A stretch of DNA of 64,000 bases from an uncultured Chloroflexia bacterium (GTDB taxonomy: Bacteria; Chloroflexota; Limnocylindria; Limnocylindrales; CSP1-4): assembly GCA_963749705.1 (NCBI GenBank), contig CAVVNQ010000002.1:169024-233023 (forward strand). The letters are read 5' to 3'. The notes beneath the pieces are model-generated. The model ran no database searches. It worked only from the letters and a program-made list of their open reading frames with translations, and was not told where the DNA came from. The position numbers and the translations under genes were made by a program. How positions within the stretch are numbered: the stretch's first letter is position 1; every line of letters starts with the position of its first letter. Of the stretch, positions 39,769-47,142 are shown in pieces.

Positions 39769-40557
39769 GTGCATATCCTGGTCCTGACCAAGCCCGTCCC
39801 CGATCCCGCCGCGAACGCCGAGCGGCTGGGCCCCGATCACCGCCTCGATCGTGGCGCCTCGCCGACCGTCGTCAACGGCAACGACGAGTACGCCCTCGAG
39901 GCGGCGCTCCAGCTGATCGAGGCGCACGGCGGCGAGGTGTCGATCCTGACGATGGCCCCGGCCAACGCGACCGAGACGATGCGCAAGGCGCTCGCGATGG
40001 GCGCCATGCGCGGCGTGCTGGTGACCGATCCCGCGCTTGCGGGTGCGGACCTGCCGACCACGATCCGCGTGCTCGCCGCGGCCGCCTCCCGCCAACCCTT
40101 CGACCTGCTGCTGGCGGGGCTCGACACCTCGGACGGCGCCGCGGGTGCGGTCGCCGCGGGCGTCGCCGCCCGCCTCGGGCTGCCGCTCCTGTCGGCCGCC
40201 GCCCGGATCGAGCCGGACCCCGCGGCCGGCACCGTCCGCGTCCGGCGGCTGAGCGCGAAGGGCTACGACGTGCTCGAGTCGCCGATGCCCGCGGTGCTCT
40301 CGTGCACGCAGGCGCTCGGGACGCCGCGCTACCCGTCGCTCAAGGGGATCATGGCGGCCCGTTCACGAGAGATCGTGACCCTGTCACTCGCGGATCTCGG
40401 CGACGCTGACCTCGCGCCGGCCGATGGCCAATGGGCGACCCGCGTGGTCGCGGCGGACAAGCCACCCGCGCGCGCCGCCGGTCGCGTCGTTACCGGCCCC
40501 GCCGCCGATGCCGCCCGCGAGATCGCCGACGTCCTCGCTGCCCGGAGGCTCATCTGA
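39769..40557 (+). CDS. etfB: Electron transfer flavoprotein beta subunit
   Basis: HILVLTKPVPD..., NGNDEYALEAALQL, LLLAGLDTSDG, PRYPSLKGIMAA. Confidence 0.93.
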   Translation: MHILVLTKPVPDPAANAERLGPDHRLDRGASPTVVNGNDEYALEAALQLIEAHGGEVSILTMAPANATETMRKALAMGAMRGVLVTDPALAGADLPTTIRVLAAAASRQPFDLLLAGLDTSDGAAGAVAAGVAARLGLPLLSAAARIEPDPAAGTVRVRRLSAKGYDVLESPMPAVLSCTQALGTPRYPSLKGIMAARSREIVTLSLADLGDADLAPADGQWATRVVAADKPPARAAGRVVTGPAADAAREIADVLAARRLI

Positions 40558-41534
40558 TGACCGCGCGCATCCTGGTGGTCGCCGAGGTCGGCGACGGTCA
40601 GCTCACCCGGCTGTCGGCCGAGGTCGCCACGCTCGCCCGCGCGCTCGCCGAAGCGGCGGGCGGCAGCGTCCAGGGCCTGGTGATCGACGCCTCGCCCGAC
40701 GCCGCCGCGGACGAGCTCGCCGGGTACCTGCCGGCCGTGGTCACCGTGACCTCACCCGCGGTGGCCGGCGAGGTGTGGGCGCCCAGGGCGGTCGCCGAGA
40801 TCCGGCGTCTGGTCGACGACGGCGTGACCCACGTGCTGCTCGGCTCCACGGCCGACGGCCGGGACGTGGCGGGGGCCCTCGTCGGGCTGCTGGGCTGGGG
40901 CCTGCTGGCAAACGCGAGCGGGGCGGCCTGGGAGGACGGCGGGCTGGTCGTCGAGGCCACCGTGCTCGGCGGCAAGGCGATCACGCGCAGCACGCTGACG
41001 GGCCCCACGGGCATCGTGACCGTCGGCCTCGGTGCCGTCGCGGCGGAGCCGGCGGGCGCAACCGGAACCATCGAGAGCGTGCAGCCCGCCCCCGAGCCCG
41101 CGACGCCCGCGGTTCCAGTCCTCGAGCGGGTCGCCGAGGCCGGGGCGGAGGCATCGCTCGAGGAAGCTCGGGTCGTGGTCGTCGGCGGCCGCGGCGTCGG
41201 GAGCCCCGAAGGGTTCGCCATCGTCGACGAGCTCGCCGGCATCCTGGGCGGGGTGACCGGCGCCACCCGTGCATCGGTGGATGCGGGCTGGATCGCGTAC
41301 GCGCGACAGATCGGGCAGACCGGCAAGATCGTCAAGCCGGCGCTGTACCTGGGTCTGGGCGTGTCGGGCGCGATGCAGCACCGGGTCGGGATGCAGGGCG
41401 CCGAGACGATCATCGCGGTCAACCGGGACCCGGATGCCCCGATCGCGGAGATCGCCGACCTGTTCGTCGTGGGCGACCTGTTCCAGGTCGGGCCGGCGCT
41501 GGCCGCCGAGCTCCGCGCCCGGCGCGGTACCTGA
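40557..41534 (+). CDS. etfA: Electron transfer flavoprotein alpha subunit
   Basis: C-terminal FAD-binding region VVVVGGRGVG, RASVDAGW, QIGQTGKIVKPALYLGLGVSGAMQH, IIAVNRDPDAPI. Confidence 0.93.
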   Translation: MTARILVVAEVGDGQLTRLSAEVATLARALAEAAGGSVQGLVIDASPDAAADELAGYLPAVVTVTSPAVAGEVWAPRAVAEIRRLVDDGVTHVLLGSTADGRDVAGALVGLLGWGLLANASGAAWEDGGLVVEATVLGGKAITRSTLTGPTGIVTVGLGAVAAEPAGATGTIESVQPAPEPATPAVPVLERVAEAGAEASLEEARVVVVGGRGVGSPEGFAIVDELAGILGGVTGATRASVDAGWIAYARQIGQTGKIVKPALYLGLGVSGAMQHRVGMQGAETIIAVNRDPDAPIAEIADLFVVGDLFQVGPALAAELRARRGT

Positions 41535-41559
41535 CGGTCCTGGCCGTGGGGAGCGAGCC

Positions 41560-42162
41560 GTGACCGACGGGACCGGGCTGTGGCTGCTGCTGCTGGCCAT
41601 CCTGGCCTTCGCCGCCGCCGTGATCCTCCGCCGGATGGGCCGGCTGATCGCACGAACCCGGGAGCTCGAGGGCTTCCAGCGATCGGCCCGCCAGCTCGAT
41701 CGGGCGTTCGGCGCAACGGCCGATCCGATGGTGGCCCGGCTCGACGAGCTGCGGCGTCACGCCGGTGATCCGCAGGGCCTGGTCGGGCTGCTCGGACCGG
41801 CCTCCGAGACGCTGCGCACCGCGGCGAACGAGGCCAGGGCGCTGCGGCCGCCCGCGAGGCTCAGGGGCGAGGCGCAGGGTCTCGCACGCGAGCTGGACCG
41901 CGCGATCCGGGCGACCGAGATGGTGGAGCACGGCCTGGACGCGCTGCTCGCCGTGCGGGGCGGCCGGGAGCTCGAGGCGCAGACCTCGCTCAAGCGCGGC
42001 GCGCTCAATCTCCGCCATGCTCGCTCGGCGTTCCACGAGATCGTGGCGCAGGTGCTGGCGGTCGGTCCGGCGGACGTGGCGACCAACGCGCCGACGCGCT
42101 CCACCGGCGCCGGAGCGACCGTCCCGACGTACATCGTCGACGGCATCGACACCGACCTCTAG
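41560..42162 (+). CDS. Hypothetical N-terminally TM-anchored, helix-rich protein
   Basis: GTG start; TM helix LWLLLLAILAFAAAVIL, then Arg/Ala/Leu-rich predicted helices. No family recognised. Confidence 0.45.
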   Translation: MTDGTGLWLLLLAILAFAAAVILRRMGRLIARTRELEGFQRSARQLDRAFGATADPMVARLDELRRHAGDPQGLVGLLGPASETLRTAANEARALRPPARLRGEAQGLARELDRAIRATEMVEHGLDALLAVRGGRELEAQTSLKRGALNLRHARSAFHEIVAQVLAVGPADVATNAPTRSTGAGATVPTYIVDGIDTDL

Positions 42163-42172
42163 GCGGGCTACA

Positions 42173-42221
42173 ACCCCCGCATATAGTGGTATTCTCGCCA
42201 CGCACCACTAGGGATAGTGGT
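42173..42221 (+). promoter_or_regulatory. Two NrdR-box-like palindromes 31 bp apart (centre to centre), upstream of nrdR
   Basis: Box 2 ACCACTAgggaTAGTGGT (42204-42221) has perfect 7-bp arms. Box 1 acccccgcataTAGTGGT (42173-42190) shares the right arm. The CwA..TwG core resembles the NrdR-box consensus. Confidence 0.45.
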
Positions 42222-42243: not shown

Positions 42244-42729
42244 ATGCGCTGCCCCCAGTGCGGCACTCGTGACACGCGCGTGGTGGACTCGCGCGACCTC
42301 GACGAGGCCTCGACGATCCGGCGCCGCCGGGAGTGCCCGGCATGCACCACGCGGTTCACGACGTACGAGCGGGTCGAGGCCGCCCGGCTGGTGGTCGCCA
42401 AGCGCGACGGCATCCGGCAGGAGTTCGATCGCGACAAGCTCGCGTCGGGCCTGGCCAAGGCGCTGACCCGGCGTCCGGTCGCCGACGACGCGGCGGAGCG
42501 CGCGGCCGACGAGATCGAGAGCGAGCTGCGGTCCTCGGGGGCGTCCGAGATCCCCAGCTCGCGGATCGGCACCATGGCGATGGACAAGCTGCGGGCGATC
42601 GACCACATCGCGTACATCCGGTTCGCATCCGTGTACCAGAGCTTCGAGGATCTCGAGGACCTCAAGCGCGAGGTCGACAGCCTGTTCGCGGAGGGCGGGG
42701 CGCCGAAGAAGCGGAAACCGCTCGCGTGA
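42244..42729 (+). CDS. nrdR: Transcriptional repressor NrdR (zinc ribbon plus ATP-cone)
   Basis: [45 protein letters not shown]...; [15 protein letters not shown]. Confidence 0.95.
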
Positions 42730-44369
42730 GCGTCCTCGCCGATCGCGACATCCGGGCGGAGCTGGAGTCGGGCCGCGTCCGGATCGACCCCTATGACCCG
42801 TCGGACCTGCAGCCGTCGTCCGTGGACCTCCACCTCGATCGCAGCTTCCGCGTGTTCCGCAACAACCGGTACGCGTTCATCGACCCCCGCTCGCCGCAGC
42901 CGGACCTCACCGAGCTGCTGAGCATCGGCGAGGACGAACCGTTCGTGCTCCACCCCGGCGAGTTCGTCCTGGGCCAGACCCTCGAATGGGTGGAGCTGCC
43001 GGACGACCTGGTGGCAAGGCTCGAGGGAAAGGCGCTCGCCCTCGACACTCCGGTGCCGACGCCGTTCGGCTGGCGGACGATGGGCGATCTCGAGCCGGGC
43101 GACCTGGTCTTCGACGAGCACGGAGTTCCGACGACCATCGTCGCGACGACGCCGCCCCTTGCGGATCGACCCTGTCGCGAGATCACGTTCTCCGACGGTG
43201 CAACCGTGATCGCGGACGCGGACCACCAGTGGCTGACGGTGGACAAGAACGGTCGACGCGCGGGGCGCTGGCAGGGTGCGATCCGCACCACCGACGAGAT
43301 CGCGCGGACGCTCACGGTCCGTGGCGAGCGCAACCATCAGGTGCCGCTGCCAGGCTCGGTCGAGTACGCCCCGCGCATCGACCTTCCGATCGAGCCCTAC
43401 ACGCTCGGGGCGTGGCTGGGAGATGGCACGACCACGAAGGCCGAGATCACCTCCTGCGACGAGGAGGTTCTGCGGCAGATCAGCGGCGACGGGTTCTCGG
43501 TGCAGCCGTTGTGGTATGCCCCGCATGCATATCGGATCGGTGGTGTCGGGCGCACCCGTGACGCAACGACGGGCCGCTACGCGCGCAACGGATCCCTGTC
43601 GAGCCGACTGCGCACGATGGGCCAGATGCACGGCAAGTTCGTCCCTCGGGCGTACCTCGAGGCGGGTGTCAGCCAGCGGCTCGCCTTGCTCCAGGGGCTC
43701 ATGGATACGGACGGCTTCGTCGACGACGTGGCGGGACGGTGCGAGTTCACCAGCACGAACGAAGGCCTCGCCGATTCCGTTGTCGAGCTTGCCGCCAGCC
43801 TCGGCTTCCGGCCGGTGAGGTCCAGCGGGCGGGCGATGCTCAATGGCGTCGACCACGGACCCAAGTACCGGGTGAAGTTCACGCCCGACCGGCCGGTGTT
43901 CCGTCTGACCCGGAAGCTCGTCCGCCAGAAGCCGACCAGCAGCCGCTTCCATCGCTTCCGGGCGATCGCTGACGTGCGCGAGGTGGCCTCCGTGCCCGTC
44001 CGTTGTATCGAGGTGGCCTCGCCGCGAGGACTGTTCCTGGTGTCCCGCTCGTTCATCCCCACGCACAACAGCTCGCTTGGGCGCCTTGGGCTCCTCATCC
44101 ATTCCACCGCGGGATATGTGGATCCGGGCTGGAAGGGCACGCTCACCCTCGAGCTGTCGAACGTCGCCAACCTGCCGATCGCGCTGTACTACGGGATGCG
44201 AATCGGCCAGATCAGCTTCTTCCGGATGAGCTCGCCCGTCGAGCGGCCGTACGGCAGCAAGGAGCTGGGATCGAAGTACCAGGGCCAGTCGGAGCCAACG
44301 GCATCGGCGTTCCACGCGGACTTCGAGCGCGGCCGGAAGGTGCGGGAGAGCGGGGAAAGCCCAACGTGA
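42726..44369 (+). CDS. dcd: dCTP deaminase precursor (actinobacterial Dcd type) interrupted by a 346-aa intein
   Basis: N-extein of 102 aa ([11 protein letters not shown]...[27 protein letters not shown]) plus C-extein of 99 aa ([37 protein letters not shown]...) gives a normal 201-aa Dcd. GTGA overlaps at both ends. Confidence 0.93.
43032..44069 (+). mobile_element. Intein with a LAGLIDADG homing-endonuclease domain; class-3-like (Ala1, Trp-B12, Cys-F4, Thr-G5)
   Basis: Block [11 protein letters not shown]; block [12 protein letters not shown]; LAGLIDADG motifs [10 protein letters not shown] and [12 protein letters not shown]; block F VPVRCIEV; block G FIPTHN followed by Ser+1. Confidence 0.9.
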
Positions 44370-45241
44370 GCATCGACGACGGCGTCGATTTCCGGATGGA
44401 CCTGGGCGGCGGCACCACCGTGGCCCTGATCCAGGCCGGCACGTTCCGGTCGGACGCGGGAGCGCTGTTCGGTCCGGTGCCCTGGATCCTGTGGCGGCCC
44501 TGGGCCGAGGGCGAGATCGACGAGGACCGGCGGCTGCTCCAGGCGCTCAACTGCCTGCTGGTCGAGACGCCGGCCGGCCGCGTGCTCGTCGAGACGGGGA
44601 TCGGGGAGCGGATCAACGACAAGGGCCGCGCGATGCGCGGCTACCTCGGGACGCCGATCGCGCCGGCGATGCGCGACGCGGGCTTTGCCCCCGGCTCGGT
44701 CGACGTGGTCGCGATGAGCCATCTCCATTTCGACCACGCCGGGGGCCTGCTGCTGGCTGACGGTTCGCGCGCCTTTCCGCGGGCACGGATCGTGGCCCAG
44801 CGTGCCGAGTGGGAGCTTGCGCTCGGGGATAACAGCCGGGTGCTCGCCTCGTACGACCAGCCCGAGCTGCGGCTGGTGGCTGACTGGGGCGCCGAGGGCT
44901 GGGTCGAGGGCGATCGGGAGCTGGTGCCGGGCGTGTCCGTGATCGAGACCGGGGGGCATTCGATGGGACACCAGGCGATCGTGGTCCGGGGCACCGGACC
45001 TGGCGCGCGCACGCTCGCGTTCTTCGGCGACCTGTGCATGCGGCCGTGGGCGGCCAACCCGCGCTGGGTCACCTCGTTCGACGACTTCCCGCTGGACAGC
45101 GTCGCGCGCAAGGGCGAGCTGTTCCGGCGCGCGGTCGACGAGGACTGGCTGGTCGCGCTGTCGCATGAGTCGCGGGATCCTGTTGGGCGCCTGATCCCTG
45201 ATCGCGACCGGTTCCGGTTCGAAGGGTTGCGCAGCGGCTGA
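44366..45241 (+). CDS. MBL-fold metallo-hydrolase
   Basis: [17 protein letters not shown], metal motif [10 protein letters not shown], later [13 protein letters not shown] overlap with the dcd stop. Confidence 0.85.
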
Positions 45242-45646: not shown

Positions 45647-46327
45647 TCAGCTGCCCGGCAGCCACGCCTCCACTCGCGCCTTCGCCGTGTCGTCGGTGAG
45701 CGGCCCGTTGATCACCTCGAGGATCCGGCCATCGGCGCCGATGAAGAACTGCGTCGGCAGCGCGAACACTCGGTACAGCCCGAAGATGTCGGCGGACGCG
45801 TCGAACGCGATGTCATAGCCGAGCTCGTAGCGCTGCGCGTAGGCGCGCACGTCGTCGACCGTCGTCTCCTGGACGGCGATGCCGATGATCGACAGCCCGC
45901 GGGACCGGTACGCGGCGTCCATGTCGCGCAGGACCGGGGTCTCAGCCTGGCACGGCGGGCACCACGTCGCCCAGAAGTTGAGCCACACCAGCCTGCCGCG
46001 AAGGTCGGCCAGGCGGACCGGATTGCCATCGAGATCGGTCAGCATGACGGAGGTCCCGTCGGCGCGGACGGTCTCGAGCTCGGGGGCGACGTCGCCGGGT
46101 CGCAGCCCTTCCGTGGTCGGCCCGAGGACGTACGGCGTCGACGCCGGGATCGTGATGGTTCCGGTGGGGCCGGCGGCGATCGGGCGGGTGACGACGGTCA
46201 GGGTGACCGCGGCGACCACCACGATCAGGAGCACGGTCAGCAGCTGGCGGCCGCTGAACGGGCCGATGAGCCCGCGCCGCTGACTGGGCGGGGTCGGCTG
46301 CGGACCCGGCTCGGGCGCCGTCGTCAT
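45647..46327 (-). CDS. TlpA/ResA family thiol-disulfide oxidoreductase, membrane anchored
   Basis: TM anchor LLTVLLIVVVAAVTLTVV; thioredoxin fold with LNFWATWCPPCQAE. Confidence 0.88.
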   Translation of the reverse strand: MTTAPEPGPQPTPPSQRRGLIGPFSGRQLLTVLLIVVVAAVTLTVVTRPIAAGPTGTITIPASTPYVLGPTTEGLRPGDVAPELETVRADGTSVMLTDLDGNPVRLADLRGRLVWLNFWATWCPPCQAETPVLRDMDAAYRSRGLSIIGIAVQETTVDDVRAYAQRYELGYDIAFDASADIFGLYRVFALPTQFFIGADGRILEVINGPLTDDTAKARVEAWLPGS

Positions 46328-47142
46328 ACGAACGATGTGAACTGGAAGTAGCGCGGCAGCAGGACCAGGAGGTCGAAGATCATCGCCAGCCCGATGGCCA
46401 CGACGAGCAGCCCGCCGACCAGCGAGACCGCGCGCCCGTGGCGAACCAGGAACCGCGTCACGCGCGTTGCGCGATCGTAGAACGCCGCGATGAGCAGGAA
46501 CGGGATCCCGAGCCCGGCCGTGTAGCTCACCAGCAGCAGCGCACCCTGGAGCTTCGTGTCCGACACGGCAGCCATGGTCAGGATGCCGCCCAGGATCGCG
46601 CCGATGCACGGCGTCCAGCCGATGGCGAAGATGGCCCCCAGCGCGAACGCAGCGGGCAGGCCGGCGCGCCCACCCACGAGCCGCCGGCCCAGGCGTCCAC
46701 CGGTCCCGCCGCCCGGAGTGCCGCCGGCCGGGGCCAGGGTCATTCCGCCGGTCATCGAGGAGAGTCCCGCGGAGGCCCCGGCGTCGAGCGGGCGCCACGT
46801 CCGCTCGAGGATGGGGATGTTCACGAGGCCCGCCAGGCTCAGGCCCATGATCACGAGCACGAAGCCGCCGACCACGCGCAGCGGCTGGATGTAGTCGGCG
46901 ATGGCGCCACCCGCGAACGCGGCGGTGACCCCGAGCAGCGTGAACACGGTGCCGAAGCCCGCGACGTAGGCGGCCGCATGGCGCATCGCCGCCCAGCGCG
47001 ACGGCGTCTCCCCCTGGTTGGCGGCGACCGCGACCGCGGTCAGCTGCCCGAGGTACGCGGGCACGAGCGGCAGCACGCACGGCGACAGGAACGAGATCAG
47101 GCCCGCCGCGAAGGCGACCAGGATCGTGTAATCGCCGGTCAT
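46324..47142 (-). CDS. ccdA: Cytochrome c biogenesis protein CcdA (DsbD-type transmembrane thiol transporter)
   Basis: FAAGLISFLSPCVLPLVPAYLG and a second Cys motif GWTPCIGAILGGIL; polytopic. ATGA overlaps on both sides. Confidence 0.9.
   Translation of the reverse strand: MTGDYTILVAFAAGLISFLSPCVLPLVPAYLGQLTAVAVAANQGETPSRWAAMRHAAAYVAGFGTVFTLLGVTAAFAGGAIADYIQPLRVVGGFVLVIMGLSLAGLVNIPILERTWRPLDAGASAGLSSMTGGMTLAPAGGTPGGGTGGRLGRRLVGGRAGLPAAFALGAIFAIGWTPCIGAILGGILTMAAVSDTKLQGALLLVSYTAGLGIPFLLIAAFYDRATRVTRFLVRHGRAVSLVGGLLVVAIGLAMIFDLLVLLPRYFQFTSFV

Follow-up and report, generated by a model that had tools for sequence, protein, structure and literature searches.

The dcd gene of an uncultured Chloroflexia bacterium of soil or freshwater, which GTDB places in the Limnocylindrales and which is represented here by a 64,000-nucleotide stretch of contig CAVVNQ010000002.1 (positions 169,024 to 233,023; the window), very probably carries, inserted in its reading frame, a class 3 intein of full length, an apparently mobile element whose protein splicing would follow the route that starts at a cysteine of block F. 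The dCTP deaminase (Dcd) precursor is predicted to carry a Hint splicing domain split by a two-motif LAGLIDADG homing endonuclease similar to that of PI-SceI. An earlier note, made from the sequence alone, had proposed a class-3-type intein with such an endonuclease at this place, and the proposal is borne out by natural empty sites in related species, by homology and fold matches to solved inteins, and by the conservation of the Trp-Cys-Thr (WCT) triplet and of Ser+1. The kind of element is known and the finding reveals no new intein mechanism; the Dcd host and the insertion site are not described in the searchable literature for class 3 inteins.

The interrupted dcd gene and its natural empty sites

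The open reading frame (ORF) at 42726..44369 translates into a Dcd precursor of 547 amino acids. In the mechanical ORF list the same frame extends upstream as far as a GTG at 42333, and 42726 is taken as the true dcd start because it overlaps the stop codon of the upstream gene nrdR by 4 nt (GTGA), and because of the lengths of the homologues and the alignment with Mycobacterium tuberculosis Dcd. The homologues found in the databases, which are more than 120, have 536-572 amino acids and cover 97-100% of the query. The Pfam DCD domain is found at precursor residues 3-102 and again in the C-terminal part, and the NCBIfam dCTP deaminase model TIGR02274 gives 201 bits in two pieces, with a cut-off of 92.8. 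In the alignment with M. tuberculosis Dcd (2qxx, E 1.1e-64), query residues 3-103 correspond to residues 2-102 and query residues 449-535 to residues 102-188. The two halves of the mycobacterial enzyme thus abut across the gap in the query, so the insertion has exactly 346 amino acids and occupies nucleotides 43032..44069. The insert comprises residues 103-448 and lies between Lys102 and the first Ser of the EGK↓SSLGRLG loop, where the arrow marks the junction. Residue 111 of Escherichia coli Dcd pairs with query residue 449 in the alignment with 1xs1, and this Ser111, which aligns with the Ser that follows the insert, is an active-site residue in the E. coli structures.

The features of the interrupted gene are given below, with intein residues counted from Ala1; 6bs8 is the intein DnaBi1 of M. 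smegmatis (Msm) and 6rix the intein DnaB1 of M. chimaera (Mch).

42726..43031 (+): dcd N-extein, 102 amino acids, ending in ARLEGK; Pfam DCD 1.5e-42 at residues 3-102; aligns with M. tuberculosis Dcd 2-102
43032..44069 (+): predicted class 3 intein, 346 amino acids, from Ala1 to His345-Asn346
43032..43331 (+): splicing lobe (Hint) at the N-terminus, which contains block A; residues 1-70/71 align with residues 1-70/71 of 6bs8 and 6rix
43173-43175 (+): Cys48 codon, within the N-terminal Hint lobe; numbering as in Msm DnaBi1
43212-43232 (+): block B, ADADHQW, with Asp62, His65 and Trp67; numbering as in Msm DnaBi1
43404-43433 (+): LAGLIDADG motif 1 (LGAWLGD131G), with Asp131; aligns with LGLWIGDGLS of PI-SceI
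43686-43721 (+): LAGLIDADG motif 2 (LMDTD227G), with Asp227; Pfam LAGLIDADG_3 2e-06; aligns with LAGLIDSDGYV of PI-SceI
43992-44015 (+): block F, VPVRCIEV, holding Cys325 (44004-44006) as the predicted nucleophile; aligns with VPVRCVEV of 6bs8 and 6rix
44052-44069 (+): block G, FIPTHN, with Thr344, His345 and Asn346
44070..44369 (+): dcd C-extein, 99 amino acids and the stop codon, beginning with Ser+1 of SSLGRLG; aligns with M. tuberculosis Dcd 102-188

The closest solved relatives of the exteins are the bifunctional Dcd enzymes of M. tuberculosis, and the joined exteins have 62% identity to the bifunctional enzyme over 187 aligned residues. A bifunctional enzyme of this type would have dUMP as its product, which is what the earlier note assumed for the Dcd of the window. 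In a Foldseek comparison, the AlphaFold2 model of the precursor matches M. tuberculosis Dcd 2qlp with a template modelling score of 0.91-0.92, normalised to the target, which indicates that in the predicted model the N- and C-extein come together in a Dcd of native-like packing. The SSLGRLG sequence is present in all the 124 intein-containing Dcd proteins that were aligned to follow conservation, and the exteins keep 82-99.5% identity among the Dcd homologues. The motifs and coordinates quoted by the earlier note are all correct when the gene is read codon by codon. Its claims of an exact 346-amino-acid insertion at 43032-44069 and of a position directly before the first Ser of SSLGRLG, matching E. 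coli Ser111, agree with the alignments to the intein-free enzymes of M. tuberculosis and E. coli, and the first of them agrees also with the empty sites that follow.

When one genome was scanned for each GTDB species, a dcd with the same intein was found at 36 loci and an intein-free dcd at 23 loci, and at 21 loci the intein alone matches, within other genes. The intein-containing dcd loci are nearly all from metagenome-assembled genomes (MAGs) labelled as Limnocylindrales, Chloroflexota or "Chloroflexia", and one is from Acidimicrobiales. In 23/23 intein-free genes the last base of the N-extein directly adjoins the first base of the C-extein, while the occupied alleles have 1038 additional bases at the junction, in some of them a few bases more or fewer. 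The contiguous exteins of the relatives show that the insert is a discrete unit of about 1038 nt. The earlier note had named a homologous non-intein domain at this site in related Dcd proteins as the finding that would speak against an intein, and the relatives have 23 natural empty sites there instead.

The empty junctions are of more than one type, such as GAGGGGAAG↓TCGAGCCTG, found in the locus L055, and AAG↓AGCTCG. The codon of Ser+1 (window 44070-44075 and its equivalents in 58 related loci) is AGY in 34/35 intein-containing alleles, and the 23 intein-free alleles have AGC in 14 and TCN in 9. A clean division between occupied (AGC) and empty (TCG) alleles by this codon was considered and dropped, since 14/23 empty alleles use AGC. 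Arg replaces Lys at position -1 in four intein-free alleles. These variants of the Ser+1 codon and of the -1 residue might influence the recognition of empty sites by the endonuclease or their compatibility with splicing.

Class 3 signatures and the proposed splicing route

Class 3 inteins are defined by the lack of Cys, Ser or Thr at position 1, by the co-varying residues Trp(B12), Cys(F4) and Thr(G5), and by a +1 residue that is Ser or Thr (Tori et al. 2010, PMC2807308). Their block-F cysteine is the obligate nucleophile and forms the first branched intermediate, which is thiol-labile (PMC2807308). All of these sequence features are found in the Dcd intein. Among the 124 aligned proteins, position 1 is Ala in 123 and Ser in one, and Cys48, Asp62, His65, Trp67, Asp131, Asp227, Cys325, Thr344, His345, Asn346 and Ser+1 are invariant. 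The WCT triplet is formed by Trp67, Cys325 and Thr344, and the same residues are aligned in 6bs8 and 6rix. The host departs from the usual setting of the class, which is an ATPase or helicase and mostly a P-loop, a tendency and not a part of the definition.

The first 70 or so and the last 35 residues of the intein match those of M. chimaera (6rix/6riy) and M. smegmatis (6bs8) with E values of 1.4e-27 to 1.1e-25 (phmmer), so a chance match is not an issue. The segments ALALDTP, ADAxHQW, VPVRC[IV]EV and PTHN align residue for residue with 6bs8, 6rix and 6riy. Between these lobes, intein residues 122-285 correspond to PI-SceI in a match that aligns both of the LAGLIDADG motifs, and Pfam LAGLIDADG_3 is found at precursor residues 317-361. 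The AlphaFold2 model of the precursor, which has a mean predicted local distance difference test (pLDDT) of 72.6, has its best fold matches in Foldseek with PI-SceI (E 1e-14), with the Dcd of M. tuberculosis and with the class 3 inteins of the Mch and Msm DnaB proteins. The intein has a GC content of 0.686 and a GC content at third codon positions (GC3) of 0.864, and the GC3 of the exteins is 0.88-0.93; this similarity indicates a composition adapted to the host, with no sign of recent foreign origin. No second intein of the same family is found in the 64-kb window.

The steps of the splicing reaction are proposed by homology to the DnaB intein of mycobacteriophage Bethlehem (MP-Be), Msm DnaBi1 and Mch DnaB1. 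With Ala at position 1 the usual N-terminal acyl shift is impossible. In the first step, Cys325 at position F4, with His65 activating it and Trp67 and Thr344 holding it in position, would attack the Lys102-Ala103 bond and form a thioester-linked branched intermediate. The N-extein would then be transferred to the side chain of Ser+1, the cyclisation of Asn346 would free the intein, and an O-to-N shift would rebuild the EGK-SSLGRLG loop of a Dcd of about 201 residues. Msm DnaBi1 is class 3 by experiment, with Cys118 as nucleophile (PMC6195587), and Mch DnaB1 uses Cys124 (PMC7664689), both within a Cys-His-Thr triad; from these residues and Cys320 of MP-Be DnaB, we infer that Cys325 would have the same role. 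Purifying selection on the exteins is very strong, the ratio of non-synonymous to synonymous substitution (dN/dS) being 0.00-0.16 among close relatives; this argues for the production of a functional Dcd and hence for splicing that works. The unspliced precursor is probably inactive, as 346 amino acids stand within a conserved loop that belongs to the nucleotide-binding and active site.

Among solved inteins, Msm DnaBi1 (6bs8) and Mch DnaB-1 (6rix/6riy) resemble the Dcd intein in the splicing lobes, the blocks, Lys at -1 and Ser at +1, and in Msm DnaBi1 the residues Cys48, Asp62, His65 and Trp67 have identical numbers. These two are mini-inteins of 139-145 amino acids, which lack an endonuclease and are inserted in the Walker A P-loop of a helicase, whereas the Dcd intein has 346 amino acids, an intact LAGLIDADG endonuclease and a deaminase of the dUTPase fold as host. 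The MP-Be DnaB intein, which is the prototype of class 3 (PMC2807308), has a similar full length, a non-nucleophilic residue 1 and Ser or Thr at +1. Its residues His65, Trp67, Cys320, Thr339, His340 and Asn341 can be placed beside His65, Trp67, Cys325, Thr344, His345 and Asn346 of the Dcd intein. It differs in its host, which is the P-loop of a phage helicase, and at position 7 of block B, which is Ser62 in MP-Be DnaB and Asp62 in the Dcd intein and in Msm DnaBi1.

The closest full-length relatives outside Dcd, endonuclease included, are the class 3 LAGLIDADG inteins in the large terminase subunit (TerL) of cluster E mycobacteriophages such as Cjw1 and Kanye, which have a junction of the GK↓S/T type like that of the Dcd intein and differ from it in host protein and insertion site. 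PI-SceI, the VMA1 intein, has the same layout, in which a LAGLIDADG endonuclease of two motifs divides the Hint domain, and both of its catalytic Asp residues align with those of the Dcd intein, but it belongs to class 1 (Cys1 and Cys+1) and has about 14% sequence identity.

A dCTP deaminase intein for which splicing was shown experimentally is that of cyanophage vB_AphaS-CL131 (PMC6293099). The translation of its gp069 (L081 23325-24992) gives a class 1 intein, with Cys1 and Cys+1, that has an HNH endonuclease. Its insertion point, GKSTYAR↓C, belongs to the same active-site loop and is seven residues downstream of the GK↓S site of the window. Since this intein is of another class and at another site, the Dcd loop has been invaded at least twice independently. 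It is the sole experimentally spliced Dcd intein found in the searchable literature. Nothing that links class 3 inteins with Dcd is found there either, and an earlier notice of this site is possible in MacGregor et al. 2013, which PMC6293099 cites as a report of inteins in the Dcd of a proteobacterium and of a Chloroflexi.

Apparent mobility, relatives and likely origin of the intein

The endonuclease region has a dN/dS of 0.05-0.12, which is the mark of purifying selection. A neighbour-joining tree was built from NrdR, the Dcd exteins and the metallo-beta-lactamase-fold (MBL) protein encoded downstream of dcd, with 652 columns, 57 taxa and 200 bootstrap replicates. The intein is present in 31 basal species, and a derived clade (200/200) contains 22 intein-free and 4 intein-containing species. 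Within this clade there is a five-species group (200/200), in which the window genome, L001, L002 and L003 have the intein and L055 does not. The intein-free L055 is the sister of the intein-containing L001 in 181/200 replicates.

Sequence comparisons of the intein and of its flank disagree with each other. The intein of the window (43032-44069) has 96.4% identity to that of L001 (3307-4344), with 37/1038 differences, while the 3 kb upstream have 85.0%. With L002 (3307-4344) the pattern is the opposite, 89.2% for the intein and 92.1% for the 3 kb upstream, and the contrast between intein and flank in the two comparisons has a Fisher p = 8e-20. Between L001 and the window, synonymous divergence amounts to 0.03-0.18 for the intein and to 0.34-0.41 for the exteins. 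The comparison is limited to the upstream 3 kb because the downstream flank aligns poorly past the MBL gene, at 63-70% identity. These sequences are most simply read as a recent horizontal transfer by which the intein passed from one species-level lineage to another, as would fit homing into empty alleles. As DNA, the intein appears to behave as a selfish homing element, given the purifying selection on the endonuclease, the empty and occupied alleles in sister species and the recent transfer across species.

An intein-only query was compared with 1.84 billion representative proteins, clustered at 50% identity, and finds 18,553 clusters of relatives at E<=1e-3 and 4,642 at E<=1e-30. Family statistics come from 183 related inteins, delimited in the 150 best representative clusters. 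These inteins start with Ala in 140 cases, have Lys at -1 in 145 and Gly-Lys before the junction in 122, and their +1 residue is Ser (97), Thr (82) or Cys (4). The THN end is present in 178, HxW in 181 and the F-block Cys in 175. After removal of the inteins, Pfam identifies TerL and DnaB among the host proteins, and the junctions read from genome loci include ARPAMGK↓ST of DnaB, GSGK↓TT of RecA-like proteins and other Walker A sites of the GK↓S/T type. The best matches in cultured phages are the TerL inteins of cluster E mycobacteriophages, with 39% identity over the full length, and metagenomic TerL inteins reach 45% identity to the Dcd intein. Full-length class 3 LAGLIDADG inteins with 34-42% identity are also seen in the DnaB Walker A motif of cultured actinomycetes, among the loci L035-L057 (Streptomyces, Kitasatospora, Nocardiopsis and others), and family members occur in one Methanobrevibacter MAG and one Gottesmanbacteria MAG.

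At the Dcd site itself, the intein is found in at least four further 50%-identity Dcd clusters (P0132, P0133, P0142 and P0167) and in one Acidimicrobiales genome (L033). An exact-peptide scan found no Dcd with this intein on viral contigs, where related inteins sit in other hosts. IMG/VR viral contigs (L099-L101) have an intein-free Dcd that is about 54% identical to the exteins of the window.

The published description limits class 3 inteins to hosts of the helicase and ATPase type, with P-loops mostly as the site (PMC2807308). In a 2025 preprint, 287/784 actinobacteriophage inteins are class 3, distributed over four extein types, and nucleotide-binding motifs are proposed there as a way for inteins of this class to undergo "extein switching". 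The statement of the earlier note that class 3 inteins are known from only a few hosts does not stand for organisms, as the 18,553 clusters and the 287/784 phage inteins show, and it stands for host proteins, whose range is narrow and does not include Dcd. Dcd is not a P-loop ATPase, and the residues at -2, -1 and +1 of its EGK↓SS junction equal those of the Walker A GK↓S/T sites. Most likely, to judge from the junctions, the intein reached Dcd by extein switching from the P-loop GK↓S/T family of phage terminases and DnaB.

Operon context, competing explanations and significance

The nrdR gene upstream of dcd encodes a repressor with a Zn-ribbon and an ATP-cone. It lies upstream of dcd at 34/36 loci with the intein and at 23/23 loci without it, and the MBL gene lies downstream at 35/36 and 22/23, respectively. 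The linkage of nrdR and dcd is a feature of the lineage and is independent of the intein, since it is equally present in the intein-free relatives. The earlier note had placed dcd in an operon headed by nrdR, and this is confirmed by the 4-nt overlap, the kept synteny and a tandem pair of NrdR-box-like sites upstream. The features of this region are the following.

42174..42189 (+): NrdR-box-like palindrome 1, CCCCCGCATATAGTGG; 5/6 conserved positions (C4, A8, T9, T11, G13)
42205..42220 (+): NrdR-box-like palindrome 2, CCACTAGGGATAGTGG; 4/6 conserved positions (C4, A6, T11, G13)
42244..42729 (+): nrdR, encoding the Zn-ribbon and ATP-cone repressor; Pfam Zn_ribbon_NrdR 1.1e-18 and ATP-cone 1.3e-20; ATG at 42244, protein starting MRCPQCG
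44420..45241, start approximate (+): MBL gene, downstream of dcd; Pfam Lactamase_B 7.9e-13

The NrdR operator is made of two partially palindromic 16-bp boxes, 15-16 bp apart, in which C4, A6, A8, T9, T11 and G13 are conserved (PMC13584703). The linker between the two palindromes of the window has 15 bp (42190-42204), and the pair is kept in at least 80% of 57 related loci, with the footprint ACCAC.A....T.GTGGT. The strict textbook consensus of the NrdR box, with up to 3 mismatches, gives no match here, and the boxes emerged by reading the sequence and by footprinting. Since the predicted pair upstream corresponds to the published operator architecture, dcd is probably part of the NrdR regulon in these bacteria. 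NrdR often regulates its own gene (PMC9110341), and the position of the boxes suggests that the nrdR-dcd operon is autoregulated. Farther from dcd, the window has an ETF (electron transfer flavoprotein) alpha subunit gene (40431-41534, +), an ORF without Pfam match just upstream of nrdR (41269-42162, +), and a gene (45647-47080, -) for a protein with an AhpC/TSA-redoxin domain, with a WCPPC motif, in its C-terminal part.

The operon bears on the possibility that the intein was domesticated as a conditional switch and is retained because redox state or zinc gates splicing via Cys48 and Cys325. Msm DnaBi1 requires its Cys48 for splicing, and this residue and the catalytic F-block Cys join in a reversible disulfide (PMC6195587). 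The Cys48 of the Dcd intein is at the same position, Cys48 and Cys325 are kept in 124/124 Dcd inteins, the intein is fixed over 31 basal species, and the operon carries the NrdR-box-like sites. Cys48 is present, however, in 144/200 members of the wider family, and for this reason may be merely structural or catalytic. In addition, 22-23 closely related species keep the same operon without the intein, which makes the intein dispensable, and an intact endonuclease under selection together with recent transfer fits selfish persistence with no benefit for the host. Retention as a switch, proposed by analogy with Msm DnaBi1, is rather unlikely. If it were true, oxidative stress would pause the conversion of dCTP to dU(T/M)P and throttle the supply of dTTP precursors. 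The further idea that a redox or metal switch on Dcd maturation is layered on NrdR repression, giving a two-tier control of dNTPs in Limnocylindrales-type Chloroflexota, is doubtful; its two tiers would be a transcription that senses dATP/ATP and a protein splicing that senses redox state.

Several observations weigh against a mobile class 3 intein that splices by the block-F Cys route and homes between species. The splicing domain gives no Hint or intein-splicing match in Pfam and NCBIfam even at E<=10, and the endonuclease part alone is found. The pLDDT of the AlphaFold2 model is below 50 at both splice junctions, residues 101-109 and 440-454. The chimerism of MAG assemblies may be an alternative source of the incongruence between the window and L001, and the neighbour-joining tree is explained with equal parsimony by one loss with regain and by three losses independent of each other. 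No co-conversion tract is delimited around the junction; the one candidate, between L001 and L055, is a single 60-nt dip just past it, mostly due to two Ser codons, and is unconvincing. Frameshifts interrupt 3/36 intein-containing loci. The DNA around the Dcd site and the P-loop sites has 7-14/30 identical bases per side, which is unremarkable, so the argument for extein switching rests on the residues of the junction and not on a common DNA target.

The silence of the Hint models is read as a gap in Pfam and NCBIfam, because the matches to solved inteins reach E 1e-27. The earlier note had looked to hidden Markov model (HMM) searches for both parts, of which the LAGLIDADG search succeeded (Pfam LAGLIDADG_3, 2e-06) and the Hint search did not (E<=10). 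It had also taken the lack of a Hint HMM match as a sign against an intein, a rule that would misfire here, with splicing lobes that match solved inteins at E 1e-25 to 1e-27. As Pfam and NCBIfam have no model that detects the splicing domain, public records name these proteins of about 540 amino acids just "dCTP deaminase".

Splicing could also follow another route, for example one like that of class 2, where the +1 residue would attack the N-terminal junction directly and Cys325 would be purely structural; Ala1 alone would fit class 2 as well. Class 2 inteins, on the other hand, have no WCT triplet and use Cys+1 (PMC2807308). The Dcd intein has the full triplet and Ser+1, by which class 2 is excluded, and its homology, at E 1e-25, is to inteins with a proven obligate F-block Cys nucleophile. 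A route of this kind is very unlikely.

The frameshifted loci could indicate a splicing-dead relic, in which dcd is a pseudogene or only an inactive fusion protein is made. The frameshifts are in the N-extein in L026 (3001-3420), just inside the intein in L074 (3001-3490) and just before block G in L032 (about 4330). All three loci are from uncultured MAGs, and the frameshifts may be either assembly or sequencing errors or real decay. The ORF of the window is intact, the splicing residues are invariant in the 124 homologues except for one Ser at position 1, and the low dN/dS and high identity of the exteins are sensible only if a functional Dcd is made, so that a relic is highly improbable. 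An accessory domain that is not an intein and stays in the mature enzyme would agree with the missing Hint match in Pfam and NCBIfam, and it deserves next to no credence, being refuted by the homology to solved inteins in sequence and fold and by sister species whose sites are precisely empty; the terminal His-Asn, with Ser after it, also speaks against such a domain.

A class 3 intein in Dcd extends the host range of the class from helicase and ATPase proteins to a metabolic enzyme of the dUTPase fold, and the shared GK↓S junction is a concrete case for the idea that inteins can move to new host proteins by way of nucleotide-binding motifs. Public records give hundreds of these intein-containing proteins the bare label "dCTP deaminase", and surveys that use standard HMM libraries will undercount class 3 inteins because the splicing domain is missed. 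The sequences indicate that the intein is abundant in an uncultured lineage of Chloroflexota and bears good signatures of ongoing mobility. The dozens of Limnocylindrales-type species with occupied or empty alleles, together with the recent transfer from species to species, are a natural population system, in which the invasion and loss of inteins could be studied in free-living bacteria, beyond phages. If splicing were conditional, the synthesis of dTTP precursors would join DNA replication, through DnaB, among the processes gated by class 3 inteins.

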